A stretch of DNA of 64,000 nucleotides from Pseudoclavibacter sp. (GCA_047722305.1 JBDNYM010000006.1:213-64212), one strand, 5' to 3'. Shown: positions 25,029 to 56,424, counted from the first letter of the stretch. Numbers and translations are program-made. Notes: a model not told the origin generated them from the letters alone.

Positions 25029-25041
25029 GAGACGCCCGTCC

Positions 25042-33593: not shown

Positions 33594-36109
33594 CGGATTT
33601 GCCCGTTCGGGGAAGGCTCAACCGGCCCGGCCGGCTCGCTCGTGGCGGTGCTGCCTGGTGCGGGTGCCTGGTCGGGCAGGCGGAGTCGTTTGAGGAGCAG
33701 GGCGTTGATCGCGACGATGACGCTGGAGCCGGACATGCTGATGGCCGCGATTTCGGGGGTGAGCATGATCCCGAACGCCGGGTAGAACACACCGGCGGCG
33801 ATGGGCAGCGCGATGGTGTTGTAGCCGATGGCCCAGCCGAGGTTCTGCCGCATCTTGCGCAGGGTGCCTTTCCCGATCCGCAGCGCGATAGGGACGTCGA
33901 GCGGGTCGGAGCGCATGAGAACGACGTCGGCGGTTTCGATCGCGACGTCGGTGCCGGCGCCGATCGCGATGCCGAGGTCAGCCTGTGCGAGAGCGGGTGC
34001 GTCGTTGACGCCATCGCCGACCATCGCGACCTTCTTTCCGGCTGCCTGGAGCTTGGCGATCTTGGCGGACTTGTCTTCGGGCAGCACGTCGGCGATCACG
34101 GTGTCGATGCCCAGCAGGGAGGCGATCCGTTGCGCGGTGGGCTGGTTGTCGCCGGTGAGCATGACGGCCTCGATACCGGCGTCGTGGAGGGCGTCGATCG
34201 CGGCTTTGGCGGTCTCGCGGGGTGCGTCGGCCAGTGCGATCACGCCGCCGATGGTGCCGTCGACGGCGAACATGATCGCGGTGCGCCCGTCTGCCGCGAG
34301 CGACTGTTGAGCGGTATCGACGGGGCTGGTGTCGATGCCCTCGGCTGCCATGAGCCTGGTGTTGCCGAGAACGACCCGGTGCCCGTCGACGGTGGCGGTC
34401 GCGCCCTGCCCGGTGATGTTGCGGAACGCGGTCGCGGTGCGGCGTGGGATGTCGCGGGCGTCGGCGTAGGCGACGATCGCTTTCGCCAGTGGGTGCTCCG
34501 ATTCTCGTTCCGCGGCCACGACGAAGGACAGCAGATCCAGGTCGTTGGTGCCGACCGCGAGGTAGTCGGTGACTTCGGGCTCGCCCTTGGTGAGGGTGCC
34601 GGTCTTGTCGAGCACCACGGTGTCGATCCGGGCGGCGGTCTCGATGCCGGTGGCGTTCTTGAACAGCACGCCGCGTTTGGCGCCCAGGCCGGTGCCGACC
34701 ATGATCGCGGTCGGGGTGGCGAGCCCGAGCGCGTCGGGGCAGGTGATGACGACCACGGTGATCGCGAACAGAATCGCCATCGGCACATCCGCTCCGGCGA
34801 GGAGCCAGACCAGGAACGTGAGTGTGCCGCCGATCAGGGCGACCAGCACGAGCCAGAACGCGGCCCGGTCCGCGAGCCGCTGACCGGGAGCCTTGGAGTT
34901 CTGTGCCTCCTGCACCAGTTTCACGATCTGCGCCAGCGCGGTATCGGCGCCGACCTTCGTCGCCTTCACTCGGAGGCTGCCGACGGTGTTCACGGTCGCG
35001 CCGATCACAGCCGAGCCGGGGGACTTCTCGACCGGCATCGACTCGCCGGTGACCATCGACTCGTCGACCTCCGACGTGCCGTCCACGACCTCCCCGTCGG
35101 TCGGGACTTTCGCGCCGGGCCGCACCAGCAGCAGATCGCCGGGAACGACCTCGGCGGTGGGGATTTCGATCTCGTTGCCGTCGCGGATCACGACTGCGCG
35201 TGCCGGGGCGAGTTCCAGCAGCCGGCGGATGGCGTCGTTCGCGCCGCCGCGGGCGCGCATCTCGACCCAGTGGCCGAGAAGTACGAAGGTGGCGAGCACG
35301 CTGGCGGCTTCGTAGAACACTTCCCCGCCGCCGGTCAGGGTGATGGCGAGGCTGTAGAGCCAGCCCGCGCCGACACCGACCGCGACCAGCACCATCATGT
35401 CCAGCGTCTTCGCGCGCAGCGCCCGGTAGGCGCCGTCGAAGAAGATCCAGGCCGCGTAGAAGATCACCGGCAGCGACAAGATCAGGGAGAACACGTCATC
35501 GCGGAGCCCGAACGGTGCCGGGACGGTGAACCCGATGACCTCCCGGCCGATCGGAGACCACAAGGTGATCGGGATGGACAGGATCAGCGCGACCAGGAAA
35601 CGGTTGCGCATGTCACGGATCATCGCGTCCATCGACATGCCGCCGTGGTGGCCGCCGTGCCCCATCACATCCTGCGCGGTCGCCGGTGCCGAGTCGCCAT
35701 GCGCGTGAGCCGGCTCCGGCGAGGCCAGCGCCATGTCGTGGCCGGCGTGGGCGGAGTGATCGTGCCCCGTGTCGCCGGTTGCTCCGTGGTGGTGATGTTG
35801 CGGCGCGCTGTCGTGGTGGGAGGGAGGGGCCGTCGAGCGCGAGGCGTGCGGCTCGTCGCTGGGGTGGCAGATGTGCTGCGGCACGGACTGTCCGGCACAA
35901 TGGAATCCGCACTCGGTGACCCAGGCGCGGAGCTGCTGGACAGATGTCAGCTCGGGGTCGTAGGTGACATTCGCGGTCTGCGCGACCGGGTTCACCTCGA
36001 CGGTGACCACTCCGGGCAGTCGCCCCAGGGTCTTCTCGGCGAGTTGTGAAGAGGAGGCCCAGTGCAGACCGGCCACCTCTAGGACGACGGTGTTCATCTT
36101 CTTGTTCAT
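33590..36109 (-). CDS. Copper-type P1B ATPase with a His/Met-rich N-terminus, a degenerate HMA domain and a CPD transmembrane motif.
   Basis: [21 protein letters not shown]; [14 protein letters not shown] (codons TGC CCC GAC); N-terminal [28 protein letters not shown]; an HMA-like fold lacking CxxC (AGLHWASS). Confidence 0.9.
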
Positions 36110-39000: not shown

Positions 39001-40101
39001 TCAAGTCATCGACAGCGCCAGGGCAGCCGAGGCTTGAAGCGGAACGACCCCGTTGCCGAGGGCGGTGATCTGCTGGTTCTGCGTCAGTCCGTGGTCGGGG
39101 TCAGTGACCCATCTGGCCGGGAGCCCCATGATCCATTCCACGAACTCGGGTGCTGGTCGTGGCCCTTCGCCTTCGTTCAGGAGGTTCAAGAGTGCGGGGG
39201 CTGGTGCTTCCCGTCCGGTGATGTGTTCCCATCGGGCGATGGCTCCGGCGTAGCGTCCCCAGCGGTGAAGATGCCGTCGATCAGGTGCCACAGCGTCTCC
39301 GGCTCGGCTTGCTTGCTCGGCGAGCCATCCGGTCCGTGAAGCGCAAAGTCGATGAGCTGATGGCTCAACGTGATAGTGCCCCGCCGAGCCCGAACTTGAT
39401 CGACCGTCTCCCCTCCGCGCTTGGCATCCGTCGCTACCGGTGTCCGGAAGAATGCGGTGGGCGAGGATGAAGACTCGGAAGCGGGGATGTGGTGCGCCGA
39501 TGGCGGAAGCGGGTAGCCCGATCCATCGTGCATCCATCCCGAGGTCGGCCAGGTCTCCGAGAACGGCGCCGGCCGCCCGGAGAGGTCGAGCTGCGTTGTC
39601 TCCCAAACCCCACGGGTCGAGTTCCAGGTTGCGAAGGGTTGCAGGATTGGGGGTTGCATCGTCGGGGTCGCGGTGCTCATCGTCGTCTCCTTCCAGGGGT
39701 GTGCGGACGGCCATCGTGGAGAGCAGGCCGCGCACGTTCTCGATGACAACCAGCTCGGGTTGTAGCGCGTCGATCGCTCCGGCCATGTGTGCCCAGAGGC
39801 CGGATCGTGTGCCGGGCGCGAGGCCGGCACGTCGGCCGGCGACCGATACGTCTTGACAGGGGAATCCACCACAGAGCACATCGACGGGTTCGACGTCGCG
39901 CCAGTCGATGGTGGTGATGTCGCCGAGGTTCGGGGCGTCAGGCCAGTGGTGGGAGAAGATGCGGGCGACGTGCTTGTTGATTTCGGAGAACCAGATCGTC
40001 TCCGCCCCGAGGGCGTGTTCGATAGCGAGGTCGAGCCCGCCGTACCCAGAGAAGAGCGATCCGACTCTGAGTGGGCGGTCGTGCTGAGTGGGGTCGTGCA
40101 T
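39001..40101 (-). CDS. DNA (cytosine-5)-methyltransferase, orphan.
   Basis: Motif I LFSGYGGLDLA, motif IV GGFPCQDVS, motif VI ENVRGL, and C-terminal motif X GNGVVP. No adjacent endonuclease gene. Confidence 0.92.
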   Translation of the reverse strand: MHDPTQHDRPLRVGSLFSGYGGLDLAIEHALGAETIWFSEINKHVARIFSHHWPDAPNLGDITTIDWRDVEPVDVLCGGFPCQDVSVAGRRAGLAPGTRSGLWAHMAGAIDALQPELVVIENVRGLLSTMAVRTPLEGDDDEHRDPDDATPNPATLRNLELDPWGLGDNAARPLRAAGAVLGDLADLGMDARWIGLPASAIGAPHPRFRVFILAHRILPDTGSDGCQARRGDGRSSSGSAGHYHVEPSAHRLCASRTGWLAEQASRAGDAVAPDRRHLHRWGRYAGAIARWEHITGREAPAPALLNLLNEGEGPRPAPEFVEWIMGLPARWVTDPDHGLTQNQQITALGNGVVPLQASAALALSMT

Positions 40102-40404: not shown

Positions 40405-43400
40405 GTGGTGACGGTTTCGATGCGCGTGATGACGGCGGGCGATGGTTACAAGTACCTGCTCCGCTCGGTCGCGGCCGGGGATGGTGACCGTTCCCTCTCG
40501 ACGCCGTTGACGCGCTACTACGCCGAAGCGGGAAACCCGCCCGGGTTCTGGATCGGCCAGGGCCTCGCCGCCCTCGGGCACGGCGAACTGACCCCCGGCT
40601 CGGAAGTGTCGGAAGCGCAACTCGAGCTGCTGATCGGGTCGGGTCGTGATCCGATCACCGGCGACCCACTCGGCAAGGCGTACCCGACGTTCGCGCCTCT
40701 GGCCGAGCGGATCGAACGCCGCATCAACACCCTCGACGCAGAACTGGGGCCAGCCGCGCGGGCGGTCGAGACGGCACGGATCGAGGCCGAGGAAACCGAG
40801 CGCGGAACCCGGCGCGCGGTGGCCGGGTTCGACTTCACCTTCTCAGTCCCCAAGAGTGTGTCGGCGCTATGGGCGGTCGCCGATGCCGGCACTCAGGCGT
40901 TGATCGCGGACGCGCATCATGCGGCGGTTGCAGAGCTGGTTGCGTTCCTCGAACGCGAGGTTGCAGTCACCCGCACCGGAGCGGACGGCCCCGAGGGCAC
41001 GGTTGCGCACGTCGATGTCCTCGGTGTCGCTGCAACCGCGTTCGACCACTACGACTCCCGGGCGGGCGATCCGCAGTTGCACACTCATGTCGTCATCAGC
41101 AACAAGGTCAAGACCGCCCAAGACGGCAAGTGGCGCGCCCTCGCCGGGCGTCCGATGCACGCCGCGGTCGTCGCGGTCTCCGAGCTCTACAACGCCGCCC
41201 TGGCCGACCAGCTCACCCGCACCCTCGGCATCGACTGGGAGAGCCGCGACCGGGGACGGGACCGCAACCCCGCCTGGGAACTCGTCGGCGTCACCGAAGA
41301 ACTGATCGGTGAGTTCTCCACCCGGTCACATCACATCGAGGCCGAGAAAGACCGCCTCATCGTCGAGTACGTCGCAACGCACGGCAGGCAGCCCTCCGCC
41401 CGGGTCGTGTTGAAGCTCCGCGCCCAAGCCACCCTTGCCACGAGGCCCGAGAAGCACATCCACTCGCTCGCAGACCTCACCCGCCAATGGCGGGAACGCG
41501 CCGGCCGGGTGCTCGGGCAGGACCCGACCGGCTGGGCACGCACCCTCACCCACCAGGCAGCGGACGCACCGGCTCGGGTGTTGCGGGCCGACGACGTGCC
41601 CCTGGATGTCGTGCGCGAGGTCGGCCTGTCGGTGATGGCGGTCGTGAGTGAGAAGCGGTCGACGTGGACGCGCTGGAACCTGCACGCCGAAGCATCCCGG
41701 CAGTTGATGGGCTGGCGGTTCGCCTCGATGCTGGATCGGGAGGCGATCACCGGGCTCGTGGTCGATGCCGCCGAGCAAGCCTCGCTCCGCCTGACTCCGC
41801 CCGAACTCGCCTCCAGCCCGGTGCAGTTCCGCCGAGCCGATGGCACCTCACGGTTCCGGCCATACGCTTCTGTGCTGTTCTCGTCCGAAGCTCTGCTCGC
41901 CGCCGAAGACCGGCTCCTTGCCCGCGCCGACTCTCTCGCTGGGCCGGTGGTGTCGTTGGAGACGGTCGAGCAGATCACCAGCCGCCCCGACCCAAGGGGC
42001 CGGATGCTCGGCGAGGATCAAGCCGCAGCCCTGGCCGCGATCGCCGTCTCCGGCCGCACCCTCGACGTGCTGGTCGGCCCCGCCGGCGCAGGCAAGACCA
42101 CCGCCATGAACGCGCTCCGCCGCGCATGGGAGAAGGAGCATGGCAGCGGCTCGGTCGTCGGCCTCGCACCATCCGCCGTCGCCGCCCAGGTGCTGGCGGA
42201 CGATCTGGGGATCACGACCGAGAACACGGCGAAGTGGTGGCAGAACCACCTCATGCGCGGCACCACGTTCGAGGTGGGCCAGCTCGTCATCATCGACGAG
42301 GCATCCCTGGCCGGCACCGCCTCCCTCGACCGCATCACCGCCGAAGCCGAACAAGCCGGCGCGAAGACGCTGCTGGTCGGTGACTGGGGGCAACTCCAAT
42401 CGGTCGACGCCGGCGGTGCGTTCTCGATGCTCGTCCACGCCCGCGACGACACCCCCGAGCTACTCGACATCCACCGCTTCACCCACGAGTGGGAGAAGAC
42501 CACCTCCCTCCAACTCCGCCACGGCCGTCCCGAGGCGATCGACACCCTCGCAGGCCACGACCGCATCATCGGCGGCGAACAAGAAGCCATGATCGACGCC
42601 GCCTATGGCGCATGGCGACAAGACCTCGCCACCGGGCGAGCGTCGATCCTCGTCGCCGAAACCCACGAAACCGTCACCGCCCTCAACGCCCGAGCGCGGG
42701 CGGACCGGATCATCGACGGCACCGTGCACGGCACCCGTGAAGTCGGCCTGCATGACGGAACGGCCGTGTCCGAGGGCGATCTGGTCATCACCCGTCACAA
42801 CGACCGCCGCCTACGCAACGGCCGATCCTGGGTCCGCAACGGCGACAGCTGGACCGTCACCGGCGTTCACGCGGACGGGTCGGTCAGCATCCGCCCGGTC
42901 GGCCGCCGGCTCCGTGGCGGAATCGTCCTGCCCGCCGACTACGTGGCCGAACACCTCGACCTCGGCTACGCCATCACCGCCCATAGAGCCCAGGGAGTGA
43001 CGACCGACACGGCGCACGTCATCGCGACCGCGACCACGACGCGGGAGAACTTCTACGTCGCCATGACCCGCGGCGCGGCCGGGAACTATACCTACGTTGT
43101 CCTCGATCGGCCCGACGACAGCCACGGGGTGCCGCACCCCAGCGACAACCCTGACGCCACCGCCCGGTCGGTGCTCTACGGCGTGATCCAGCACATCGGC
43201 GCCGAACTGTCCGCGCACGAGGCGATCACCGCCGAGCAGGAACGGTGGAGCAACATCGGCCAGCTCGCCGCCGAGTACGAAACCATCGCCCAAGCCGCCC
43301 AACACGACCGCTGGGGCACCCTCCTTGCCGCCGCCGGACTCGCGAGTGCGCAGGTCGATGCCGTGCTCGACTCTGACGCCTACCCGGCCCTGTCGGCCGA

Positions 43401-43968
43401 GCTTCGGCATGCCGAAGCCAACCACCACGACCTCGACACCCTGCTGCCGCGTCTCATAGCCGCGCGGGGGCTGGGCGATGCGGACGACATCGCTTCGGTG
43501 ATCCACGCCCGCGTCGCCCGCGCCACCGCCCGGCCAGCCGGATCCGGCCGTACCCGCAAACCGCCTCGGTTCATCGCCGGCCTCATCCCGTACGCGGACG
43601 GGTCGATGGCCGACGATATGCGCCAAGCCCTGGACGAACGCCACGAGCTGATCGAAGCCCGCGCCGACTCCGTACTCACGGGCGCGCTCACCGACAAGGC
43701 ACTGTGGACAACCCAACTCGGCCCGGTACCGAAGGACACGAAGCAGCGGACGGCCTGGCGACGTGCCGCCGTCATCGTCGCCGCGTACCGGGACCGCTAC
43801 CAGATCACCGACGACCGAACCCCGCTCGGCCCCGCACCCCAGAGCACCCGGCAGAAGATCGACCGCGCCCGGGCCGAAGCCGCGCTCAGGGAAGTCAATG
43901 CCGGTACGTCCGCACCCGAGGCCGGGCGCCCGGTGACGCAGGCCGTGACTCGCGGTCCTCGTCTCTGA
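40405..43968 (+). CDS. MOBF-family relaxase-helicase (TrwC/TraA-like).
   Basis: N-terminal MRVMTAGDGYKYLLRSVA... with YYAE...PGFW and HxDxxxxHxH-type HTHVVISN. Central GPAGAGKTT Walker A with LVIIDEASL, and a RecD-like C-terminus (AITAHRAQGVT). Confidence 0.9.
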   Translation: MVTVSMRVMTAGDGYKYLLRSVAAGDGDRSLSTPLTRYYAEAGNPPGFWIGQGLAALGHGELTPGSEVSEAQLELLIGSGRDPITGDPLGKAYPTFAPLAERIERRINTLDAELGPAARAVETARIEAEETERGTRRAVAGFDFTFSVPKSVSALWAVADAGTQALIADAHHAAVAELVAFLEREVAVTRTGADGPEGTVAHVDVLGVAATAFDHYDSRAGDPQLHTHVVISNKVKTAQDGKWRALAGRPMHAAVVAVSELYNAALADQLTRTLGIDWESRDRGRDRNPAWELVGVTEELIGEFSTRSHHIEAEKDRLIVEYVATHGRQPSARVVLKLRAQATLATRPEKHIHSLADLTRQWRERAGRVLGQDPTGWARTLTHQAADAPARVLRADDVPLDVVREVGLSVMAVVSEKRSTWTRWNLHAEASRQLMGWRFASMLDREAITGLVVDAAEQASLRLTPPELASSPVQFRRADGTSRFRPYASVLFSSEALLAAEDRLLARADSLAGPVVSLETVEQITSRPDPRGRMLGEDQAAALAAIAVSGRTLDVLVGPAGAGKTTAMNALRRAWEKEHGSGSVVGLAPSAVAAQVLADDLGITTENTAKWWQNHLMRGTTFEVGQLVIIDEASLAGTASLDRITAEAEQAGAKTLLVGDWGQLQSVDAGGAFSMLVHARDDTPELLDIHRFTHEWEKTTSLQLRHGRPEAIDTLAGHDRIIGGEQEAMIDAAYGAWRQDLATGRASILVAETHETVTALNARARADRIIDGTVHGTREVGLHDGTAVSEGDLVITRHNDRRLRNGRSWVRNGDSWTVTGVHADGSVSIRPVGRRLRGGIVLPADYVAEHLDLGYAITAHRAQGVTTDTAHVIATATTTRENFYVAMTRGAAGNYTYVVLDRPDDSHGVPHPSDNPDATARSVLYGVIQHIGAELSAHEAITAEQERWSNIGQLAAEYETIAQAAQHDRWGTLLAAAGLASAQVDAVLDSDAYPALSAELRHAEANHHDLDTLLPRLIAARGLGDADDIASVIHARVARATARPAGSGRTRKPPRFIAGLIPYADGSMADDMRQALDERHELIEARADSVLTGALTDKALWTTQLGPVPKDTKQRTAWRRAAVIVAAYRDRYQITDDRTPLGPAPQSTRQKIDRARAEAALREVNAGTSAPEAGRPVTQAVTRGPRL

Positions 43969-43980
43969 GCGCTGTCGGTC

Positions 43981-45165
43981 GTGTCTGCGATCCTTGACGT
44001 AGAGCATTCGGTCGATGAGAGACGAGGTGGGAAGGTGGCGCAGTCGGAGCAAGCGCGCGAGATCGCGCGACGCCTCGGCGTGGTCAGTCATCCCACCCTC
44101 GACCAACTGGCCGAAGCTGTAGCGCTCTTTGCTCCGTTGGGTTGGGCCATGTGCGGACGCTGGCATATGGAAGGCACCTTGCGCGTCCTCCGACAAGCCG
44201 GGAACGGTGCCACGGACGACGAGCTGGACGAAGCGATCACCGAGGTGTGGAACAACGAGAACGCGACCTTGCTGAAACACGCCGCCGCGCCGATGCGCCG
44301 ATGGTCGAACTCTCACTACCCGTTCAAGCAACTTGTCTGGGATCGCGTCAGTCTCATCGAGAAGGCCATCGAGCATCACTTCGCAGGCGCCTACGAGGCA
44401 TCGACCCCGATCATCCTGGCTCAGATCGACGGCATGAGTCGGGACCTCACCGGCCAGTCCTTCTTCTCCAAAGGAAGCAACGACCCATACCTGGACGACG
44501 AGACGATCGCCGGCATGGAAACCAACCTCCCGGTGGTACGCGCCCTCTTCTCCGAAGACGTAAGGCCAACCGGCGACTACGGCAAGGTCTCTCGACACGA
44601 CGTGCTCCACGGCCGCGACCTCGGCTACGCGACCCGGGTGAACTCCACCAAGACCATCGTCCTCGTCGCCGCCCTTGCCGAATACCTCCCCAAGATCGCC
44701 GACGACGCTGGCGCCCAGCGCCGACGACAACACGAGGACGAAGTTGCCGGCTCCACTGAACTCGATGAACTCGGGCGCCTTGTGGACGACCGCCATGTAC
44801 CCGAACTGCTGAACTTCGCCTACGACTTCGACACCGAATACCTCAACGCCGTTCTGCTGAACCCGGCCCCGTTCAACGCGCGGCGGCAACTGGCTGCGGT
44901 CGCCCGCAAGCACGGCCTTGACCCGGAAGCGTTCACGCTTGACGAGGATCAGGCCGGTTGGCGCTGGTACTACACGATTCCAGCCGGCCAGACCCTCGGC
45001 TATGCAGCACGTCCAAGCACCAGCAGCGAGCGGCGCCATCCCGACGTGTGGCGATGGGACGACCCCACCACGCCACACACGTTCCCGTGGAACGACTCAA
45101 CGGGTTGGCGCTACGACGATGACTTCCCACGATCCCCGAACTGGGAACCCAAACTCGTCATGTAG
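43981..45165 (+). CDS. Hypothetical protein with an Rx4H (HEPN-like) motif.
   Basis: 394-aa ORF. The only recognisable element is GKVSRHDVLHGRDLGY in a helical context. The start codon is uncertain. Confidence 0.5.
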   Translation: MSAILDVEHSVDERRGGKVAQSEQAREIARRLGVVSHPTLDQLAEAVALFAPLGWAMCGRWHMEGTLRVLRQAGNGATDDELDEAITEVWNNENATLLKHAAAPMRRWSNSHYPFKQLVWDRVSLIEKAIEHHFAGAYEASTPIILAQIDGMSRDLTGQSFFSKGSNDPYLDDETIAGMETNLPVVRALFSEDVRPTGDYGKVSRHDVLHGRDLGYATRVNSTKTIVLVAALAEYLPKIADDAGAQRRRQHEDEVAGSTELDELGRLVDDRHVPELLNFAYDFDTEYLNAVLLNPAPFNARRQLAAVARKHGLDPEAFTLDEDQAGWRWYYTIPAGQTLGYAARPSTSSERRHPDVWRWDDPTTPHTFPWNDSTGWRYDDDFPRSPNWEPKLVM

Positions 45166-45179: not shown

Positions 45180-46187
45180 CTAGATCGAGCGCCCAGACCC
45201 GCCCGGCGCAGAGCGATAGCCGCCGAACTCGTGTCCAGCAGCGGATCGCGTCAGGTTCTTGCCGGTTGGCTCAGCGCCGTCGAGCAGCGCGATGACATCG
45301 CTGGCCCGAGTGACGACGGACGCGGCCCCTTGCTTGATGAGTTCGTTCGGGCCGTTGCTGACGGCACTGGTCACGGGGCCAGGCACCGCTCCGACACCCC
45401 GGCCGAGGCCAAGCGCGTTGAACACAGTCGTGAGCGACCCCGACCGTACGCCTGCCTCCGGGATCACGACACCACCGGAGAGTGCCGCCATCAGCCGGTA
45501 TCGCGCGATGAACCTGTCCCGGCTGGGCACAGCACCTGCCGGGAGTTCACTCACGAGCAGGCCGGTGTCACCGATCCGATCCAGCAGGTCGGTGTGCGCG
45601 GCCGGATAGCGGCGATCCAAGCCAGTTGCCAACACGACGATCGTCTGACCGGCGGCGGCGAGCACGCTCCGGTGCGCCGCACTGTCGATGCCGTAAGCGC
45701 CTCCGGCGATGACCACCCGTTCCTCATCGGCCAGCCCCGTCGCAAGTTCGTTGGTGACGTGTTCGCCGTAGTGGGTAGACGCGCGAGCGCCCGTGATCGT
45801 GACCCGATCGCTCAGCGCCGTCGCCAAGAACGACGATGCGCCCTGCGTCCACAGCACATACGGGGCGCGGTCGCCCAGCTCGTCCAGTCCGGCGGGCCAC
45901 TCCCGATCCGCCGGGATCAGCGTGCCGAACCCGTGCTGCTCAGCCTCGGCCACGCGCTCCATCAGGTCGGGCACGATCCGTGCTCGCAGGCGCTCGCGCC
46001 ACAACAGAACGTCGGCACGGCCCAGCCCCGTCACGTCATGATCGGACTCGACCAGGCTCAGCGTCGCCACGCCTCCGTGGCGACCCAGGATGTATCCGGT
46101 CGTCAGATCGTCCGGCTCAGCGATCATCGACAGCACGATTCGCGCCATCCGTTCGCCCCGCACCTGCTCCGCCAACGCGCCAGCCAT
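45180..46187 (-). CDS. dprA: DprA/Smf DNA-processing protein.
   Basis: Rossmann-like core VVIAGGAYGIDSAAHRSVLAAAGQTIVVLATGLDRRYPAAHTDLLDRIGDTGLLVSELPAG. Confidence 0.85.
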   Translation of the reverse strand: MAGALAEQVRGERMARIVLSMIAEPDDLTTGYILGRHGGVATLSLVESDHDVTGLGRADVLLWRERLRARIVPDLMERVAEAEQHGFGTLIPADREWPAGLDELGDRAPYVLWTQGASSFLATALSDRVTITGARASTHYGEHVTNELATGLADEERVVIAGGAYGIDSAAHRSVLAAAGQTIVVLATGLDRRYPAAHTDLLDRIGDTGLLVSELPAGAVPSRDRFIARYRLMAALSGGVVIPEAGVRSGSLTTVFNALGLGRGVGAVPGPVTSAVSNGPNELIKQGAASVVTRASDVIALLDGAEPTGKNLTRSAAGHEFGGYRSAPGGSGRSI

Positions 46188-46320: not shown

Positions 46321-47460
46321 GTGACACTCGAACGAGGAGGTACCTGCGTGTCCGTCGCCGCCCAGCCGAGCGCGAAGAGCAGCGCTCCTCAGCTCGACGA
46401 CATGCCTGTCCCGGTGACCTCGGTGGCACCCGCGCCTTCTCTTCCTGGTTCGCCCGTGCCTCCCGCCCATCGCATCTACTTCTACTCGCCCGATGAATGG
46501 GAAGTCTTCATCGCAGAATGGGCTACCGGCCTCGCCGTCTCGTACCGGCAGATCAAGCGGCTCGGTGGACCTAGCGATCGTGGTGTAGATGTGGCCGCGT
46601 TCAAGACTGAGCGAGGGCTTGAAGACTCGTGGGACTGCTTTCAGGCGAAGCACTACGCGGACTCACTCAATCTGTCGGACGCGATCCCGGAGATGCTGAA
46701 GCTTTTCCGAGGGGTCGTGGACGCCTACTACGTGCTCCCGGACCAGTATGTTTTTGTCGCTCCTCGTGGCTGTGGCAGTTCCCTCAACCGTCTTCTGAGC
46801 AAGCCGACCGAGTTGCGGAAGAAGTTCCTCGAAGTGGTCGATTCCCGTGGTGCAGCAACCAAGGGGCTCGATGAGGTGACGTTGCAGTCAATCCGTGATC
46901 TTGCAGCAGCCTCAGACTTCTCGATTTTTCGATCCCTTGAACTCAACGAGATGCTGGATGTCCACCGCACAACTCCGTACTACGCAGCTCGGTTTGGTAC
47001 GGCATTGCCCGCGAGACCTCCGGTTGGTCAGACGCCAACCGCCCCGGCCCCTGTCGAGGCGGTCTATGTCAAGAAGCTCGTTGACGTCTACAACGAGCAA
47101 GACCCCGTGGCCTGTTCGGATACTGAGTCAGTCACCACCCACGCGAAGTACGGCGCGCATCTTCAGCGCCAGCGGGAGGCCTTTTACTCGGCGGAGGCGC
47201 TACGTCTCTATGCCAGGGACTCGGTGCCGGACGGCACGTTTGAGTTACTGCAAGGCGATGTCTACACGGGCGTCATTGACACAGCGGAAGCGGACCATGC
47301 CAGTGGTCTACATCGACTCCGCGCGGTCCTCTCGCAATCAGGCCAGCTGGACCTCGGTGCCCATGCCCTTATCTCCGTGTCGAGAATCGAGGATCGCCAA
47401 GGCATCTGCCATCAACTTGCCAATGCGGACCGACTGACCTGGGTGGCGAACGATGAGTAG
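46321..47460 (+). CDS. Candidate ABC-3C effector: Mrr-like restriction-endonuclease-fold N-domain plus a helical C-domain.
   Basis: GGPSDRGVDVAAFKTERGLEDSWDCFQAKHY fits the D...D...QxK nuclease core. The likely start is the GTG at 46348, after GAGGAGG. Lower GC than the flanks. Confidence 0.6.
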   Translation: MTLERGGTCVSVAAQPSAKSSAPQLDDMPVPVTSVAPAPSLPGSPVPPAHRIYFYSPDEWEVFIAEWATGLAVSYRQIKRLGGPSDRGVDVAAFKTERGLEDSWDCFQAKHYADSLNLSDAIPEMLKLFRGVVDAYYVLPDQYVFVAPRGCGSSLNRLLSKPTELRKKFLEVVDSRGAATKGLDEVTLQSIRDLAAASDFSIFRSLELNEMLDVHRTTPYYAARFGTALPARPPVGQTPTAPAPVEAVYVKKLVDVYNEQDPVACSDTESVTTHAKYGAHLQRQREAFYSAEALRLYARDSVPDGTFELLQGDVYTGVIDTAEADHASGLHRLRAVLSQSGQLDLGAHALISVSRIEDRQGICHQLANADRLTWVANDE

Positions 47461-47932
47461 CCCTCTCAACAGCCCCCTCGAAGTGGGATTGCGTGTCCTC
47501 ATGATCCTTGTCGAGGCTTTTCCAGCACATCTAGACATCAACCGCCTGGTGCTGCTCGATCACGGGCTCCTACACAGCGCGGACCTTGATGGTCCAGAGA
47601 GCTTGCACCCGCCGATTCCTGTCCGAGTGGGCGAACTCGGAGTCAAAAGACAGCACATCGAAGATGGCCTCCAAGTCATGATCCGTGCCGGCCTCGCAGA
47701 GATGTCTGCCGAGGACAGCGGCATCGAGTTTTGGGCCAGCGAGAGCACCGAAGGCTTCCTAGGGCTACTTGAGAGCGACTATGCGCGCGCCCTGCATGAT
47801 CGTGCGCAGTGGGTCGTCGGGGAACTTGGGGCCGTTGACGATAGCCGTCTGCGAGAGCGCATGCGAGAGGTTTCGTCACACTGGTCCGAGGAGTTCGAGG
47901 TTGTGCTGGCGGAGAGCGGAGGCGACTTCTGA
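47453..47932 (+). CDS. Candidate ABC-3C middle component (small helical protein).
   Basis: 159 aa. It has an 8-nt overlap with the upstream gene and a 1-nt overlap with the downstream ATPase. No catalytic motif. Confidence 0.55.
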   Translation: MSSPLNSPLEVGLRVLMILVEAFPAHLDINRLVLLDHGLLHSADLDGPESLHPPIPVRVGELGVKRQHIEDGLQVMIRAGLAEMSAEDSGIEFWASESTEGFLGLLESDYARALHDRAQWVVGELGAVDDSRLRERMREVSSHWSEEFEVVLAESGGDF

Positions 47933-49806
47933 TGGGACGACTGACGCTTTCTCACCTGACCTTCACCGGTACGAATGTTGCTGCGGCGTCGGTTGACTTC
48001 AGCCCACATGTGACAGTGATTCACGGCCCGTCGGACACCGGCAAGTCCGTCATCGTTGACGCGATCGACTTCGTGCTCGGCGCAAAGGAACTCAAGGAGA
48101 TACCGGAGCGAAACGGCTACAGTCGAGTCCTGTTGGGAATCCAGCTTCCTAGTGGCGACCGCATCACGCTCGCGCGGGCGGTGGATGGCGGCGGAGTCGC
48201 CCTTTATCGAAGCGATGTCCGTGTTGAACCGTCGAGTCCTCCCGACGAGACCCTCGCCGCGAAGCACAGCTCGGCAACCACCGCGAACGTCTCCCGTTTC
48301 CTTCTTGAGCAAGTCGGTCTCGATGAGCAGCAGGTGCGTAAGAACTCACGAAACGACACCAACATGCTCAGCTTCCGCGATCTGACGCGACTGTGCCTCA
48401 TCGGTGAGACCGAGATGCAGGCGGAGATAGCGCCTGGACTCAGCGGGAACCCAGTCAACAAGACCAAGGAAGTCTCGGTTCTGAAGCTCCTCCTCACCGG
48501 GGAAGACGACTCGGCGCTGGTCGCCGTGGCATCACCACAGGAGCAGAAGCGTCTGCGTGGTGCTCGGCAAGAGGTTGTCGAGAGGATGCTCGGGCAACTT
48601 GAAGCACAGCTCCAAGACGTCGCAGAGCCAGCCGAACTCATGGCGCAACTGGGCAAACTGAACCGAACAATCGATGAGCACAGCGCGACAATCGGAGGCC
48701 TCGCGGAGAAGCGAGGGCAGCTTCTCGCGGAACGCAGCCGACTGCAAGAGATCGAGAGAACCGAGCGCGTCGAGTACTCAGACGCAGCAGCGCTCCGCCA
48801 GCGATTCAACCTCTTGCTGAAGCAGTATGAGAGTGACCTCGCACGGCTCGAAATGATCGCCGAAGCGGGGAACCTTCTCGGGTACTTCCGACGCGGCACG
48901 TGCGTCTTCTGCGGTGCGGAACCGGATAGCCAGCACCTCAACATGAGCTGCGAAGGCGACATCACAAGTTTTGGCATGTCCGTCGAGTCCGAGACCCGCA
49001 AGACTCAAGGTCTTCACGAAGACCTGCTTGTGACCATCGACAGCCTCAACGCTCGATCGGAGAGCCTGAAAGTCTCGATCAGAGCAGCGCATCGTGAGTC
49101 AATCAGCCTTCAGAAGAAGATCGACAAGCTCGACGGCGAGATGAGCCCGCACCAAGGCGACCTTCGCGACCTCCTTACGAAGCGCAGTGAGGTCGAGAAG
49201 CACCTCGGACTCTATGAACAAGTGAAGTCTCTCGAAGCCATGATCCGCAAGATCATTGACGAGACCGACGTGGAAGTGGCGACTGCAGTCGCGGGCCTGA
49301 GCCTCACCGCAGTGCGCGAGTTCTCGACCGAGATTTCCAAGCGCCTCACGGAGTGGGACTATCCAGACGCAGATTCCGTTCGTTACGACCGGAATGAACT
49401 AGACATCATCGCCGGAGATCAACAACGATCGGCGCACGGCAAGGGTGTCCGAGCGATTCTCCACGCTGCTTTCACGCTCTCTCTTGCGCAATACTGCTTC
49501 AACCGAGAGTTGCCGCACCCCGGCTTCGTCGTTCTCGACTCTCCACTCGTCACGTACCGTCCGCCAGATCAATCCACAGACACTGATGAAGAGCCCCCCG
49601 AAGGCGTCGTTCGTGCCTTCTACCGTGACATCCAGGAGAACTTCGACGGTCAAATCATCATCATGGAAAACACTGACCCACTCGAACCGCTTGGATCGAA
49701 CGCACTCGATGTACCGTTCACGAAGCGCGTTGATGTCGGGCGGTATGGGTTCTTGCCCGCCGTGGCCACTGAGACCCAGCCCGACGCTCTCCCGCTAGAT
49801 GAGTAG
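47932..49806 (+). CDS. SMC/ABC-type coiled-coil ATPase (candidate ABC-3C ATPase).
   Basis: N-terminal Walker A VIHGPSDTGKSV, a long heptad-like middle with a central CVFCG...C cluster, and C-terminal Walker B GFVVLDSPLVTY. Confidence 0.75.
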   Translation: MGRLTLSHLTFTGTNVAAASVDFSPHVTVIHGPSDTGKSVIVDAIDFVLGAKELKEIPERNGYSRVLLGIQLPSGDRITLARAVDGGGVALYRSDVRVEPSSPPDETLAAKHSSATTANVSRFLLEQVGLDEQQVRKNSRNDTNMLSFRDLTRLCLIGETEMQAEIAPGLSGNPVNKTKEVSVLKLLLTGEDDSALVAVASPQEQKRLRGARQEVVERMLGQLEAQLQDVAEPAELMAQLGKLNRTIDEHSATIGGLAEKRGQLLAERSRLQEIERTERVEYSDAAALRQRFNLLLKQYESDLARLEMIAEAGNLLGYFRRGTCVFCGAEPDSQHLNMSCEGDITSFGMSVESETRKTQGLHEDLLVTIDSLNARSESLKVSIRAAHRESISLQKKIDKLDGEMSPHQGDLRDLLTKRSEVEKHLGLYEQVKSLEAMIRKIIDETDVEVATAVAGLSLTAVREFSTEISKRLTEWDYPDADSVRYDRNELDIIAGDQQRSAHGKGVRAILHAAFTLSLAQYCFNRELPHPGFVVLDSPLVTYRPPDQSTDTDEEPPEGVVRAFYRDIQENFDGQIIIMENTDPLEPLGSNALDVPFTKRVDVGRYGFLPAVATETQPDALPLDE

Positions 49807-50003: not shown

Positions 50004-50366
50004 ATGATCCGCCTACTGATGATCGCCAGCATCCATATCCGCGACTTCATGCGTCGCTACATGCCGAGCAACATCCTGCTCGACCTCATCCGCACCCGCC
50101 GCGGCCTCAAGTGGGGCGTCCCAGCCATGCTGCTGGCGATCCCGTACTTCGGCGTCGCCTACTGGTGCACCACGATCATCGGCAACGGCGGCCCCGGCTG
50201 GCTCAACCTCGTCGTCCTGATCTGCGTGTGGAGCGGCTTGAAGATGCTGTGGATCGGCCCCGTCAGCCTGATCCACCTACTCCGAGCCAGGACCAGCGAA
50301 CGCCGTGCCCGCCGCGACCACATCCGCCGCAACCACGACGAGCCCGTGCAGACCGGAGTCATGTGA
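50004..50366 (+). CDS. Small membrane protein.
   Basis: AGAGGAG RBS and two or three TM helices (WGVPAMLLAIPYFGVAYWCTTII, WLNLVVLICVWSGLKMLWIGPV). Confidence 0.55.
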   Translation: MIRLLMIASIHIRDFMRRYMPSNILLDLIRTRRGLKWGVPAMLLAIPYFGVAYWCTTIIGNGGPGWLNLVVLICVWSGLKMLWIGPVSLIHLLRARTSERRARRDHIRRNHDEPVQTGVM

Positions 50367-50605: not shown

Positions 50606-51076
50606 CTACTTCCGAGTTGGCTGGCGACCGGATGGCCGGATCGTGTCACCACAGGCAACGATGCCCGCACGGGCGCCGTCCTTGCTGATCCCGAGCTGGG
50701 CGGCGACCTGCGGCAAGGTCAGCCCTTCCTCGTACAGCCGCGCCGCCTCGCGACGGATGCGCTCGGGAAGACCCGGCCGCCTCACCGGCACGCCCGCCCG
50801 GCGCACCAGCTCGCTGACCGTTCCACGATGCACCCCGAAGGTGGCGGCCAGCTCCCGCACCGGCACGCCCTCAGCGTAGGAGTCGAGCAGGGCCGCACGA
50901 TTCGAGGCATTCAAACGAGTTTGAGACTGACGCGATTTTTCGACCACCGGACCCCTGACGTCGGCCCGCCGAGTAGGCTGGGGACGTGCTCCACGACGCC
51001 GGGATGCCTTGTGGACACGGGAAATCAGAGTCGTGAGTGGCCTCCTGGGGTTTGAGAAGCACCTACGGAGGACCAC
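50606..51076 (-). CDS. Protein with two resolvase-type HTH units, paralogue of 55957-56424.
   Basis: YAEGVPVRELAATFGVHRGTVSELVRRAGV and YEEGLTLPQVAAQLGISKDGARAGI. No serine-recombinase catalytic domain. The true start is uncertain (GTG near VVEKSRQSQ is possible). Confidence 0.65.
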   Translation of the reverse strand: MVLRRCFSNPRRPLTTLISRVHKASRRRGARPQPTRRADVRGPVVEKSRQSQTRLNASNRAALLDSYAEGVPVRELAATFGVHRGTVSELVRRAGVPVRRPGLPERIRREAARLYEEGLTLPQVAAQLGISKDGARAGIVACGDTIRPSGRQPTRK

Positions 51077-51278: not shown

Positions 51279-54149
51279 CTACTCATCGACGTCATCCACG
51301 CTGACTTTGCCGTCGAGCACGGCCTGAACTTGATCTTCGAGGGCGAGATTCCCCTGCGCCCCGAGTTCGTTCATGTATGCCTCGGCTTGGCCTTTCAGGT
51401 CGCCATCTGACGACAGCATGGCGTTCGCGATGACGACAGGAATCGCGTGCCGGCTCAGGTCGAACGCGACCCGTCCGCCTTCGCTGCGCCCGCCTAGAAG
51501 AAGCTTTAGCACCGCGAGCGCAGCGGCAGGGTCTGTGGTTGATGCCTGCGCCAGCTCCTTCCCGATCATGTACCGCTCGGTAGCGATGGTGGGATCGAGT
51601 TCGAGTGCATCTCTCAGCCGGGGAAGCCACCACTCCGAGGTGAACGAGCTACTCTTCGCCAGCCAGTAGATGCCCTCGAGCTCTTTGCTGTCTCCGGGAT
51701 TCTCGCGAACGTGGTCAATGCGGTCGTCCCAGAGAGCCGCGAAGCGATCGCGAATTGACTCTTCCACCGAAGAGGCATGGAAGAAGGACCATGCAACCTT
51801 CCCAAGAGCGTCACCGCGAACCTCAGGACTGGCCTCGGAAAAGAAGGCCTCGAAAACGTGGTCTTCCGCGTCGATGTGCCCATACACGAACGCGTCTATG
51901 ACCCACTCGCCGATGCGCGGCAGTGGGTCGGACTCCCCTTTCCAACCGGCAGCGAGGGAGTCGCCGATGTCGATGGCCGAGAGCATTGCCGGAGTCAGGA
52001 GCTCATACATCAGTCGGTTGTAGCGGTGTGTCGCCATCGCTGTCGTGAGGACGATCTGCTGCTCGATCGAAATGCCTTCGCGAGTACCCACCAGCTCGTC
52101 CAGGTGGGCGTTGATCCAGGCAGGGGCAGAACTCAGAAGTCGACCAAGACCTTCGCCAAGAGCGGCCCGGCCGGCGCCATGTTGATCGACGCGCGCCGCC
52201 TCGGCCTCGATCGCCTTGAGTGCGTCGTCTCGCCACGGCGCGTCCTCCGAACCGGTCGCGGCGACGATGAGCGCCCGGACCCGGCTTGGCCACTGCCAAT
52301 TGAGCGACATGCTAAGTGGATCCCACCCTGAACCTTCGTGCCGGTAGGTATCGTAGTTGACCCAGGCGTCTTCGTCATCCGAGCGATAAATTAGGAGCCG
52401 TGCGAACCGTTCCTCGTACTCGGCAGGCACGACCACCTTGCCACGCTTCTTGAGTAGCTCCTCGAGCAACCCGATGGCGGCGTCCTTGGCACCGCCGTAG
52501 TCCTTGTCGTCGTCGAAGTCACTGCCTTCAACCGGGTACGGGGAAGCAAGCGGGTGGTCAAGCACGTGCTCCACCAACTCTGCAACCTGCGGCCACTCGA
52601 GTTCAAGATCTGCTTTGGTGGCTGCTTCCCATCCCTGCAGGATCGCGCGCAGGTAAGTCGGGCGGAGCTGGCTGCCCAATTGGTGGACTCCTCCGAGCGC
52701 AAGTGGGTTAGTCGTCAAGAGAGCCGAAAGCGCTCTACCTTGGCCTTCATGCGAAGGCTCGGGGCCCCATCCGTCGCCCTTGTCGTGCCAGCTCGCAAGG
52801 TGGACGACGAGTTCCGCAGGCGCCATTGCCACCATTGCATCCTGGCCGGTATGAGGGTTGGGACCGGTCCAGCTTGTAATTCGCCCCATGGGCTTCAGGG
52901 GATCGTCGATTGCGCCGAGTGCTTCATCAAGCTTCGCGAGGTCTTTGCCTAGCTCAGCGGGCAGGGCTTCGGGTCCGATCGCAGAGAGCCAGCTATGCCG
53001 GTATCGCTGTGCCCTCGCTTGAATGCTCTCCTCCCACTCCGGATCAGTGAGACCTTCGGGACGCGGAAGTCTCTCACGCATCCAGTTGAGATCGACCTCA
53101 AATGCCTTCGCGAGGAATGGCGCTATGACCGATGTCGCAGAAGCGTCTGCCCGAGCAACAGCCCTCGCCAGCTGCGCGTACTCAACGCGAAGATGCTCCT
53201 CGTCCGATTGCGGGTCGCCAAGTAGATCCCGCGCCACGAGCACCAGGGCGCCCGTGTCTACTCCCCGGTCGAGGGCCTGACGAAGAGCCTCGGCGATAAC
53301 GAAGATGGCGATCTTCCTCAACAGCTTCACACCGTCACGTAGCAGAACAGCGACCGTGTCAGCCGGCTCCCTGAGTGCCGCCTGGATCGCAACATCTCGA
53401 ACCGCATCAATGAGCGCGTCCTCCGGCCGATCCGAATGGTCATCGCGCGAGTCAATCGACGACCGATCCCTGGCGCTGAAGTCGTACTTGTCTGAAGTAT
53501 GCCCGGACGACTTGACGTATGCCGTCAGCCAACCAACGAGTGCCTTGAGCGCGTTGTCGCCTAGCGCGGGAACCATTCGCGGCAGTTCCGCTTCGTACCA
53601 GTACTCCTCAAGGAGAAGCTCCGGCTTTCGAATCGACCTGGTCTCGTCGCCCGGTCGAGGTTCGAACAGAGCGTTCGCGAGCCAACGACCGAGGCGAGTT
53701 TGACCATCTTCGAGCAACTTGATCGCAACGGAGACAAGGGAACGAGGGTCAGTTCTCCAGCCGAATCCCGACTGCACCCAGGCCTTGATGAGCGGTTCGA
53801 GTCGAGCGCTTGATTCGGCCGGAATCTGAGATCCGATCTCAAACACGGCGCGACGAACCCAGGCGTTGTTGCTCTCCTTTAACTGGAGCAGCACGTCGAC
53901 TACCTCGTCGGGCGCTTGTGGCGCTATCCGAGTTAGGTAGGCAATCTCGGGCCAGTACGTGTCGCGGATGTATCCGTCGCCGGTGGGTTCCGGCTCCGGT
54001 GGGTTCGTGAAGGCCCCCGCCTCCAGGAGGGGACGCACCCAAAGAGGATTCTCGAGACCCTCGTAGAACACTCGTCGAAGCTGGAACGTCGGAATCTTGA
54101 GCAAGGCGGCGCGCACCTGCTCTGCCGTTGGAGCACGGAAGCTAGGCAT
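51279..54149 (-). CDS. Large (956 aa) all-helical, repeat-like protein of unknown function.
   Basis: Uninterrupted ORF with no Walker, nuclease, protease or TM motifs that I can see. Leu/Ala/Glu-rich and HEAT/ARM-like by eye. 8-nt overlap with the upstream gene. Lower GC. Confidence 0.7.
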   Translation of the reverse strand: MPSFRAPTAEQVRAALLKIPTFQLRRVFYEGLENPLWVRPLLEAGAFTNPPEPEPTGDGYIRDTYWPEIAYLTRIAPQAPDEVVDVLLQLKESNNAWVRRAVFEIGSQIPAESSARLEPLIKAWVQSGFGWRTDPRSLVSVAIKLLEDGQTRLGRWLANALFEPRPGDETRSIRKPELLLEEYWYEAELPRMVPALGDNALKALVGWLTAYVKSSGHTSDKYDFSARDRSSIDSRDDHSDRPEDALIDAVRDVAIQAALREPADTVAVLLRDGVKLLRKIAIFVIAEALRQALDRGVDTGALVLVARDLLGDPQSDEEHLRVEYAQLARAVARADASATSVIAPFLAKAFEVDLNWMRERLPRPEGLTDPEWEESIQARAQRYRHSWLSAIGPEALPAELGKDLAKLDEALGAIDDPLKPMGRITSWTGPNPHTGQDAMVAMAPAELVVHLASWHDKGDGWGPEPSHEGQGRALSALLTTNPLALGGVHQLGSQLRPTYLRAILQGWEAATKADLELEWPQVAELVEHVLDHPLASPYPVEGSDFDDDKDYGGAKDAAIGLLEELLKKRGKVVVPAEYEERFARLLIYRSDDEDAWVNYDTYRHEGSGWDPLSMSLNWQWPSRVRALIVAATGSEDAPWRDDALKAIEAEAARVDQHGAGRAALGEGLGRLLSSAPAWINAHLDELVGTREGISIEQQIVLTTAMATHRYNRLMYELLTPAMLSAIDIGDSLAAGWKGESDPLPRIGEWVIDAFVYGHIDAEDHVFEAFFSEASPEVRGDALGKVAWSFFHASSVEESIRDRFAALWDDRIDHVRENPGDSKELEGIYWLAKSSSFTSEWWLPRLRDALELDPTIATERYMIGKELAQASTTDPAAALAVLKLLLGGRSEGGRVAFDLSRHAIPVVIANAMLSSDGDLKGQAEAYMNELGAQGNLALEDQVQAVLDGKVSVDDVDE

Positions 54150-54810
54150 CTGTCCCCTCCTCTGTTGCGTTTATCTCCGCAAGCAGGTCGTCGATGGAGT
54201 GCCGCGTGGCGAAAAAGGCGGTGACGACGCCGTCTAGCAATGCTTCGAATACACCGATGTGCTCTCTGAGTTCGTCGTCGGTCGGCAAGTCAGCGTCCGC
54301 AACATCGCGCTCGTGGAGGTGCGCCCACTTCACGAAGTAGTCACGTGACTCGATCCAACGAGACACGGCCACGTGGCTCGCATTGGCATCGTCCGTGATC
54401 AGCGCAGCGACATCGTCCCTTACCCGCCGCCTCTCGTGGATGGCGGCCTTGAACAGTTTGTCTATTGCCGTGGCCACTTCTTGAGGCACTGGGATGGAAT
54501 CGCCCTCTCGGTAAAGGTCGAGCTCTGGGAATCTCGCGAGAAGCTCCGGGAGCGCTTTCACCTGTTGGCCAGAGGACGGCTTGAACCGAGGGGCAGTCGG
54601 GCGGCCAAGTGCGCCAAGTACCCGATTCATTACCTCTCGCATGCAGTGCGCGATGAGCGCCACTCGCGTGCGAGGATCAAAGACTTCCAAGTCACCACTC
54701 AATAGCGCCAAGGCCGTTCGATAGGAGTTCGCAAGCTCCGTTCGCTTGTCCTGCAACGCGGCCAGAATCCGTTGCTGCCTCTCGTTCATGAATGCGTCCG
54801 ACCCGGCCAT
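54142..54810 (-). CDS. Hypothetical helical protein (222 aa), partner of the 956-aa protein.
   Basis: The ATG at 54810 is 6 nt after the stop of the 46-aa ORF. MAGSDAFMNERQQRILAALQDKRTELANSY...; contains RVALIAHCMREVMNRVLG. Confidence 0.65.
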   Translation of the reverse strand: MAGSDAFMNERQQRILAALQDKRTELANSYRTALALLSGDLEVFDPRTRVALIAHCMREVMNRVLGALGRPTAPRFKPSSGQQVKALPELLARFPELDLYREGDSIPVPQEVATAIDKLFKAAIHERRRVRDDVAALITDDANASHVAVSRWIESRDYFVKWAHLHERDVADADLPTDDELREHIGVFEALLDGVVTAFFATRHSIDDLLAEINATEEGTDA

Positions 54811-55956: not shown

Positions 55957-56424
55957 CTAGCGACGAGGACGGCGACCCTTCGGGCGAATCTGCCCGCCGT
56001 GATCGAGCACCGCTTGGCGCAGCGCCTCGTCGCTGATTCCCACTTGCCGAGCGACCTGCACAAGTATCATCCCGCTCTCGTAGAGGGATGACACTTGTGC
56101 TCCTTCGTCTGCAACCAAGCGCGCTGCTCGAACGGCGACGCCCGTGCGACGAACGAGCGCCGGGATCGTGCCACGATGCACCCCGTACTTCACACTGATC
56201 GCCTTGACAGGCACCCCGGCTTCGTAGTCAGCGACCAGCTCAGCCCGCTTCGACGGGCGCAGTCTTGTTTGAGACTGAACCCGGTTTTTTACTACCTGAC
56301 CTCGCGTATCGTGTCTCTCAGACGCCCGCGACCGAGGATGTCGACCCTCGGAGTCCGTGAGAACACGACGAATCAAGGTTTTCAGCCCAGGACGAGTGTT
56401 TGAGAATCGCCTGGGAAGGACCAC
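55957..56424 (-). CDS. Protein with two resolvase-type HTH units, paralogue of 50606-51076.
   Basis: MVLPRRFSNTRPG... versus MVLRRCFSNPRRP...; YEAGVPVKAISVKYGVHRGTIPALVRRTGV; YESGMILVQVARQVGISDEALRQAV. Confidence 0.65.
   Translation of the reverse strand: MVLPRRFSNTRPGLKTLIRRVLTDSEGRHPRSRASERHDTRGQVVKNRVQSQTRLRPSKRAELVADYEAGVPVKAISVKYGVHRGTIPALVRRTGVAVRAARLVADEGAQVSSLYESGMILVQVARQVGISDEALRQAVLDHGGQIRPKGRRPRR

Follow-up and report, generated by a model that had tools for sequence, protein, structure and literature searches.

The stretch of DNA considered here, a window of 64,000 nucleotides (nt) from Pseudoclavibacter sp. (GCA_047722305.1 JBDNYM010000006.1:213-64212; one strand, positions counted from its first letter), carries at 46,321 to 49,806 three co-directional genes, which very probably constitute an operon of the Lamassu type, belonging to the ATP-binding cassette (ABC)-three-component (ABC-3C) systems. 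A preliminary description of this window, made from the sequence alone, had placed three plus-strand genes here with overlaps of 8 nt and 1 nt, and the open reading frame (ORF) calls agree with it exactly. The genes and the accompanying translation signal are as follows, lengths being given in amino acids (aa):

46348..47460, plus strand: lmuA, the effector gene, 370 aa from a GTG; the longest ORF, from GTG 46321, encodes 379 aa
47453..47932, plus strand: lmuC, the middle component, of the Middle Component 2 (MC2) type, ATG start, 159 aa
47932..49806, plus strand: lmuB, a short-type Rad50/SMC-like ABC ATPase, ATG start, 624 aa
46334..46340, plus strand: Shine-Dalgarno-like GAGGAGG, 7 nt 5' of the probable lmuA start at GTG 46348

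The two junctions are correspondingly tight, lmuA and lmuC sharing 8 nt (47453-47460) and lmuC and lmuB a single nucleotide (47932, within TGATG). The size of 370-379 aa previously given for the first protein reflects two start codons, both of which were found; since the GAGGAGG lies upstream of GTG 46348 and 370 aa is the length of most of the 707 detected LmuA homologues, this downstream GTG is, as judged from the sequence, likely the true start. The G+C content of the operon is 59.8%, compared with 67.5% for the whole window, and the 60-nt line at 48301, counted at 53.3%, accounts for the value of about 53% reported earlier for one such line. At third codon positions the G+C content is about 0.69 in the operon and 0.85 in the neighbouring relaxase gene, a difference which fits horizontal acquisition of the operon. 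For comparison we used 15 related genome loci (labelled L001 onwards), all from Actinomycetota and with LmuB 75-97% identical to that of the window. Against one of them, the 93%-identical locus L001, the differing codons of the lmu genes comprise 73 synonymous and 34 non-synonymous changes, while 79 of the 112 base differences in the operon fall at third codon positions. Because synonymous and third-position changes dominate, this comparison indicates that the lmu genes are real and under purifying selection.

The third gene matches the PADLOC model for LmuB, PDLC03863, at 1.8e-171, with residues 4-609 aligned to positions 3-608 of a profile of 610. The best sequence match of the protein in the PDB is 9hqu_A, annotated as a DUF3732 domain-containing protein, in which the CxxC is aligned and whose sequence is that of 9hqx, the S. 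enterica Lamassu LmuACB. The motifs of LmuB are distributed along the gene in this order:

48025..48048, plus strand: Walker A, GPSDTGKS, LmuB residues 32-39
48901..48912, plus strand: CxxC zinc-hook motif CVFC at the coiled-coil apex, LmuB residues 324-327
49438..49446, plus strand: signature-like G503-K504-G505 in the C-terminal ATPase half, aligning to the GSG of S. enterica LmuB
49528..49545, plus strand: Walker B, VVLDSP, LmuB residues 533-538

Both Walker motifs lie where the preliminary description had put them, the first at residues 32-39 and the second near the C-terminus, and the long coiled-coil insert that it proposed is likewise recovered. About 460 residues separate the ATPase half-sites, and the arms flanking the CxxC (residues ~181-320 and ~346-480) are both rich in helix formers, poor in proline and matched by coiled-coil, SbcC-like and LmuB profiles; from their sequence they are expected to form an antiparallel coiled coil. 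Across 140 diverse LmuB representatives, less than 50% identical to each other, the Walker A lysine K38 is kept in 137, the Walker B aspartate D536 in all 140 and the following S537 in 123. The hook is equally constant (C324 and C327 in 140 of 140, G328 in 137), as is the glycine pair of the GKG motif (G503 and G505 each in 139, K504 in 129), which we infer to be the ABC signature of LmuB. The earlier notion of a CxxC...C cluster at about nt 48901 survives in part: CVFC starts exactly at 48901 and a third cysteine is indeed present at residue 340, but His335 and Cys340 (reaching to nt 48951) are lineage-specific, the histidine occurring in 43 and Cys340 in only 40 of the 140 representatives. 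A CCHC zinc knuckle (C324-x2-C327-x7-H335-x4-C340), in place of a shared hook of the Rad50 type, was also considered, the pattern C-x2-C-x7-H-x4-C being kept in the actinobacterial loci and in an E. coli plasmid homologue; it was dropped as a feature of the family because only CxxCG is invariant across the representatives.

The partners of this ATPase are recognised by curated models of their own. The second gene matches Pfam PF20288, Middle Component 2, at 9.2e-45 (152 bits against a cutoff of 26.9; profile positions 2-145 of 145) and the PADLOC LmuC model PDLC03871 at 2.1e-51. The first matches Pfam PF20282, the C-terminal domain 6 (CTD6) of ABC-3C systems, at 6e-40 (137 bits against a cutoff of 26.4), and the PADLOC LmuA model PDLC03852 at 3.5e-107, with residues 45-377 aligned to positions 8-335 of a profile of 336. 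CTD6 is found in each of 38 LmuA homologues. The gene is divided as follows:

46453..46992, plus strand: N-terminal effector domain, predicted PD-(D/E)xK fold of Mrr/Cap4 type (AlphaFold model, Foldseek)
46576..46650, plus strand: putative catalytic core GD77RGVD81...Q99-A-K101 in the numbering of the 370-aa protein (add 9 for the 379-aa ORF)
47056..47442, plus strand: C-terminal helical domain, CTD6 (PF20282, aligned over its full profile, 1-130, to residues 237-365 in 370-aa numbering)

Two motifs to which the preliminary description had drawn attention, SDRGVDVAAF and CFQAKHY, were located by script at residues 85-94 and 106-112 of the 379-aa ORF. The residues D77, D81, Q99 and K101 are invariant across the 38 homologues, on which the AlphaFold model of LmuA was also built; in the model D81 lies on strand 2 and the QxK on strand 3, and by the PD-(D/E)xK pattern D77/D81 together with the QxK would form the catalytic site. 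The full-length model, with a predicted local distance difference test (pLDDT) score of 85, has an alpha-beta-beta-beta-alpha-beta core in the N-domain and an all-helical C-domain (pLDDT ~90), the latter being the CTD6 and agreeing with the helical C-domain anticipated for this protein. For this model Foldseek ranks, among PDB entries, the LmuA chains of V. cholerae and S. enterica (9nxx, 9ny1, 9uxl, 9hqx) first and Cap4 next. The N-domain modelled by itself finds 12 Cap4 nuclease chains at E<=5e-4 (E ~1e-4, probability 1.0), followed by LmuA, Avs3 and EndoMS/NucS, all of these being PD-(D/E)xK enzymes. The earlier designation of the domain as Mrr-like PD-(D/E)xK therefore stands as regards the fold, for which Lamassu LmuA and Cap4 are returned first, and is weakly supported in the sequence as regards Mrr, since Pfam Mrr_cat (PF04471) remains sub-threshold for LmuA (13.4 bits against a cutoff of 21, E 0.087); matches of the same sub-threshold kind occur in 25 of the 38 homologues, the best at 7.7e-4. 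The models support the view that LmuA is a nuclease of the restriction-endonuclease (REase) fold and of the Mrr/Cap4 type, the nearest solved folds being Cap4-type nucleases.

In the literature ABC-3C, type II Lamassu (LmuA-LmuC-LmuB) and DdmABC are names of one family, and the operon displays what distinguishes its type II members, namely an SMC/Rad50-like LmuB ATPase with a coiled coil between an N-terminal Walker A and a C-terminal Walker B, an LmuA whose effector domain is joined to one of the C-terminal domains CTD1-12, and between these two a small LmuC from the series MC1-8, all in the co-directional order A-C-B. Short Lamassu systems are characterised by an LmuB of about 600 aa, a Walker B of the form hhhhD[Q/S/T/E] and zero, one or two CxxC motifs (Haudiquet et al. 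2025, PMC12663957); here LmuB has 624 aa, VVLDS and one CxxC. The ABC-3C interpretation put forward in the preliminary description is thus borne out by the matches to CTD6, MC2 and PADLOC LmuA, LmuC and LmuB, a hidden Markov model search with Pfam/NCBIfam and PADLOC finding all three components by curated models, and each PADLOC match spanning nearly the whole profile. This assignment is carried by what was observed directly: the arrangement of the genes, the domains identified in their products, catalytic motifs that are intact, purifying selection and broad conservation. We consider it highly probable that the operon is an intact type II, short-form Lamassu (ABC-3C) system, composed of a REase(Mrr/Cap4-like)-CTD6 LmuA, an MC2 LmuC and a one-hook LmuB, and travelling as cargo of an actinobacterial conjugative element; to judge from its sequence, the system is probably functional. 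It is also an already known, ordinary copy of its kind, as standard annotation (PADLOC, Pfam and the NCBI Prokaryotic Genome Annotation Pipeline, PGAP) recognises all three genes.

All of the related loci in which the three genes are complete, 13 of the 15, keep the A-C-B order (of the other two, L011 has just a part of lmuB, and in L006 lmuA is truncated by the contig end), and it recurs in a homologue on the E. coli IncF plasmid pT16RC-1. Near-identical copies of the operon are present in public databases, and at a greater distance 752 representative clusters match LmuB at E<=1e-30. Megablast of the operon against 72,556 plasmids gave no match; at the protein level, 145 plasmids have relatives of the REase-CTD6/MC2/ATPase operon; 47 of these plasmids come from E. 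coli, and 74 are predicted to be conjugative. Among 5426 complete E. coli genomes, 148 have the same type of operon, Nissle 1917 and E2348/69 being two of them, with 58 of 152 placements on plasmids.

The surroundings of the operon in the window are those of a mobile element, the pertinent genes being:

40405-43968, plus strand: TrwC/MOBF relaxase-helicase, 1187 aa (TrwC 4.5e-94, AAA_30 4.9e-58)
39001-40101, minus strand: C5 cytosine DNA methylase, adjoining the relaxase gene
23418-25253: M23 peptidase
32049-33593, minus strand: multicopper oxidase, copper-resistance cargo
33590-36109, minus strand: heavy-metal P-type ATPase with HMA domain, its end overlapping the multicopper oxidase gene
43981-45165, plus strand: 394-aa protein, between the relaxase and the DprA-like gene
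45180-46187, minus strand: DprA-family protein, divergent from lmuA (Pfam DNA_processg_A 1.4e-55)
50004-50366, plus strand: 120-aa membrane ORF with hydrophobic stretches and no family match

Because of the relaxase, the methylase, the M23 peptidase and other genes in the window, the region is recognised as a conjugative element. A relaxase homologue adjoins Lamassu in six of the 15 related loci, with none nearby in the other nine, and no cognate restriction enzyme for the C5 methylase was seen. The DprA-family gene, which lies between relaxase and Lamassu also in L001, L004 and L015, matches TIGR00732 just below its cutoff (2e-54) and the PADLOC model ShosA of the Shosta system (5.9e-47), and no ShosT-like partner was detected next to it. 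The 394-aa protein has a counterpart in L001 (97% identical) and in none of the other related loci; it has no match in Pfam, NCBIfam or PADLOC, and a weak one (5.7e-07) to a PHROG of unknown function. More constant is the 120-aa membrane ORF, which accompanies Lamassu in ten of the 15 loci, either upstream, in the gap between relaxase and lmuA, or downstream as in the window.

Within the same lower-GC stretch as Lamassu there is a further pair of genes, encoding proteins of 956 aa (51279-54149, minus strand) and 222 aa (54142-54810, minus strand) and overlapping by 8 nt. The pair has no Pfam, NCBIfam or PHROG match, and only marginal ones to PADLOC Dsr1 (3.8e-4) and, in the PDB, to Cse2 (0.0018); tblastn of the 956-aa protein against the 72,556 plasmids found nothing, and in the closest loci, L001 and L002, the pair is absent from this position. 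The pair may constitute a defence module, or an accessory one, that has yet to be characterised, and may merit more attention than the Lamassu operon itself. It is bracketed by two paralogous helix-turn-helix genes, at 50606-51076 (minus strand, 156 aa) and 55957-56424 (minus strand, 155 aa), which are about 45% identical by cross-hits. Homologues of these are found downstream of Lamassu in L001-L003, L007, L009 and L012, and the paralogues could lie at the boundaries where cargo modules recombine or are inserted.

One question then is whom the operon serves. It could act on behalf of the conjugative element, by way of anti-plasmid or inter-element competition or as an addiction module, such that rival plasmids would be eliminated or cells losing or disturbing the element would be killed, phage defence being secondary. 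We regard this as rather unlikely, yet as the most serious of the alternatives. It is favoured by the TrwC relaxase standing beside the operon in the window and in the six loci, by the recurrent company of the membrane ORF, by the homologous operons on the 145 plasmids, with their conjugative share and the E. coli plasmid placements, and by the V. cholerae Lamassu (DdmABC), which eliminates plasmids as well as phages. However, nine of the 15 loci lack a nearby relaxase, the operon also resides on E. coli chromosomes, and defence systems often ride mobile elements. Moreover, such a service would differ from defence in biological role and not in molecular mechanism, and the operon could fill both roles at once.

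A second alternative concerns the ATPase, which might be a DNA-repair protein of the Rad50/SbcC/RecN type, the upstream genes being unrelated partners. LmuB is a relative of Rad50/SbcC, with weak matches to SMC, RecN, Rad50 and SbcC-like PHROG models, and Lamassu has been proposed to derive from SbcCD. The NCBIfam matches to SMC, RecN and Rad50 nevertheless span only residues ~16-60, at 16-38 bits against cutoffs of 300-1000, so that the grouping of the ATPase with RecF, RecN or SbcC, envisaged beforehand as the outcome that would speak against ABC-3C, was not observed: the repair models cover the P-loop only and remain far below their cutoffs. The LmuB match, by contrast, is full-length, and the two proteins that accompany the ATPase are a genuine LmuA and a genuine LmuC. 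With the failure of these family models, and with no Mre11/SbcD phosphoesterase domain in the operon or its neighbours, a Rad50-Mre11/SbcCD repair complex was rejected as very improbable. Least credible of all, indeed close to negligible, is Menshen (NsnABC), with which an overlap had been suspected, or another ATPase-nuclease system such as Gabija, Septu, PARIS or Wadjet. A set of three genes with an ATPase and a nuclease among them would suit these, as would the weak PADLOC matches of the ATPase to GajA, PtuA, AriA and JetC, but the latter matches are limited to the P-loop (E 1e-4 to 1e-2), genes 1 and 2 match only LmuA and LmuC models in PADLOC, and, whereas Menshen has an NsnA with ParB-DUF262 and ParBDB domains and an NsnC with an inactive-PIN (inPIN) plus a nuclease domain (PMC12065111), Pfam finds no ParB, DUF262 or PIN match in any of the three proteins, whose experimental name is Lamassu.

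Against the assignment to Lamassu, and to its mode of action in particular, a number of points have to be set. The literature gave no experiment on this locus or on a CTD6/MC2 member that could be linked to it, and scans for promoter and terminator consensus sequences yielded nothing usable, the sigma-70 consensus being unsuited to a high-GC actinobacterium. Neither LmuC nor LmuA, the latter searched by itself and also as a profile of 38 sequences, has a relevant sequence match in the PDB. The template modelling (TM) scores of the Foldseek matches are low (0.27-0.43), and the model of the N-domain alone is moderately confident, with a pLDDT of 68; because this model is poorer than the full-length one, its Foldseek result is taken as supporting and not as decisive. 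Finally, the published structural studies disagree on the role of ATP, and the Lamassu complexes solved in them are all CTD7-MC3 or CTD12 (type I), with none of the CTD6/MC2 kind. Given the missing PDB matches of LmuA and LmuC and a CTD6/MC2 pairing outside those solved, the published model is transferred to this operon by inference.

According to three independent structural studies, on Cap4-CTD7-MC3 and type I Lamassu, two folded LmuB protomers and LmuC hold one LmuA by its C-terminal domain; once freed, LmuA tetramerises by the C-terminal domains, and two nuclease domains form one active site, which cuts DNA non-specifically and kills the cell. By analogy, in the present Lamassu operon the CxxC zinc hook would link two LmuB protomers, each folded back along its short coiled coil, the LmuB dimer and one LmuC clamping the CTD6 of a single LmuA such that the nuclease would be kept monomeric and inactive. 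The LmuB heads and LmuC would then bind DNA ends or structured replication intermediates, such as palindromes, hairpins and phage or plasmid origins, and LmuA would be released in a manner coupled to the ATPase cycle. Free LmuA would oligomerise via its C-terminal domain, pairing the N-domains into an active D...QxK nuclease site, and DNA would be cut without sequence specificity, with the consequence that the cell dies or the invader is lost (abortive infection). The docking and oligomerising functions of CTD6 are presumed from the CTD7 structures (bioRxiv 10.1101/2025.03.14.643221), and the stoichiometry, the trigger, the release, the oligomerisation and the phenotype are likewise those that the analogy would predict for this operon.

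Since the CTD6/MC2 pairing has no solved structure, and its LmuA and LmuC no sequence similarity to the solved ones, the operon may depart from the Cap4-CTD7-MC3 paradigm. CTD6 and MC2 may hold and activate the nuclease differently, in oligomeric state or in the role of the hook, and, from its repeated position beside a MOBF (TrwC) relaxase, a DprA-like gene and a small membrane protein on actinobacterial conjugative elements, the operon might be a backbone module adapted to the DNA ends or single-stranded intermediates that arise when rival elements conjugate, and not a generic phage sensor; we consider this combination unlikely. The discovery value of the operon, being already recognised by standard annotation, is small. 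It documents, however, a REase-CTD6-MC2 Lamassu on an actinobacterial conjugative element with copper-resistance genes, and thus an instance of defence travelling with mobile elements. As the CTD6/MC2 subfamily is widespread and structurally unsolved, it is a reasonable target for asking whether the model of sequestration, release and oligomerisation extends beyond Cap4-CTD7-MC3.

Among known systems, the V. cholerae DdmABC and S. enterica LmuACB (Cap4-CTD7-MC3; 9nxx, 9ny1, 9ny5, 9uxl, 9hqu, 9hqx) share with the operon the gene order effector-middle-ATPase, an LmuB of some 600 aa that bears Walker A, a Walker B of the form hhhhD[S/T/Q/E] and short coiled coils, and an LmuA consisting of a PD-(D/E)xK N-domain and a helical C-domain. 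The CxxC hook of S. enterica LmuB aligns with that of LmuB here, whereas V. cholerae LmuB is without a zinc hook (PMC12663957). The differences lie in the pairing, CTD7 and MC3 there and CTD6 and MC2 here, in LmuA and LmuC sequences that show no detectable resemblance to the solved chains, in a core which is here D...QxK with weak Mrr_cat similarity and not a Cap4/DUF4297 match, and in the host, a high-GC actinobacterium.

As regards phenotype, the Lamassu-Mrr of E. coli O150:H5 SE15, likewise a Lamassu with a restriction-endonuclease effector, in this case of the Mrr family, protects cultures at low multiplicity of infection and lets them collapse at high multiplicity, as expected of abortive infection (Millman et al. 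2022). None of the four Lamassu-like systems found to defend could do without its SMC ATPase site, its effector site or lmuC (Millman et al. 2022). The SE15 operon was found neither on pECSF1, scanned in its entirety, nor at the chromosomal site of the Nissle type. A REase-CTD6/MC2/ATPase composition is also that of the operons of E. coli IncF plasmids and B2-group chromosomes (for example pT16RC-1, E2348/69, Nissle 1917), labelled in RefSeq as 'ABC-three component system protein / middle component 2 / AAA family ATPase'. They have the same architecture, matching gene lengths (366, 161 and 608 aa), an LmuA 39% identical over 89% of its length and all LmuB motifs in common, including CxxCGA..QH...C.GD, but they are distant in sequence, belong to another phylum and are flanked by insertion-sequence (IS) elements instead of a TrwC relaxase.

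With Rad50-Mre11/SbcCD, of which SbcCD is the proposed ancestor of Lamassu, the operon shares an ABC head whose two halves are separated by an antiparallel coiled coil bearing a CxxC zinc hook, and, as predicted for it, the recognition of DNA ends or palindromes. Unlike these complexes, the operon has a much shorter coiled coil and no Mre11/SbcD partner, and, whereas their nuclease is held at the recognised end, that of the operon would be released to act in trans.

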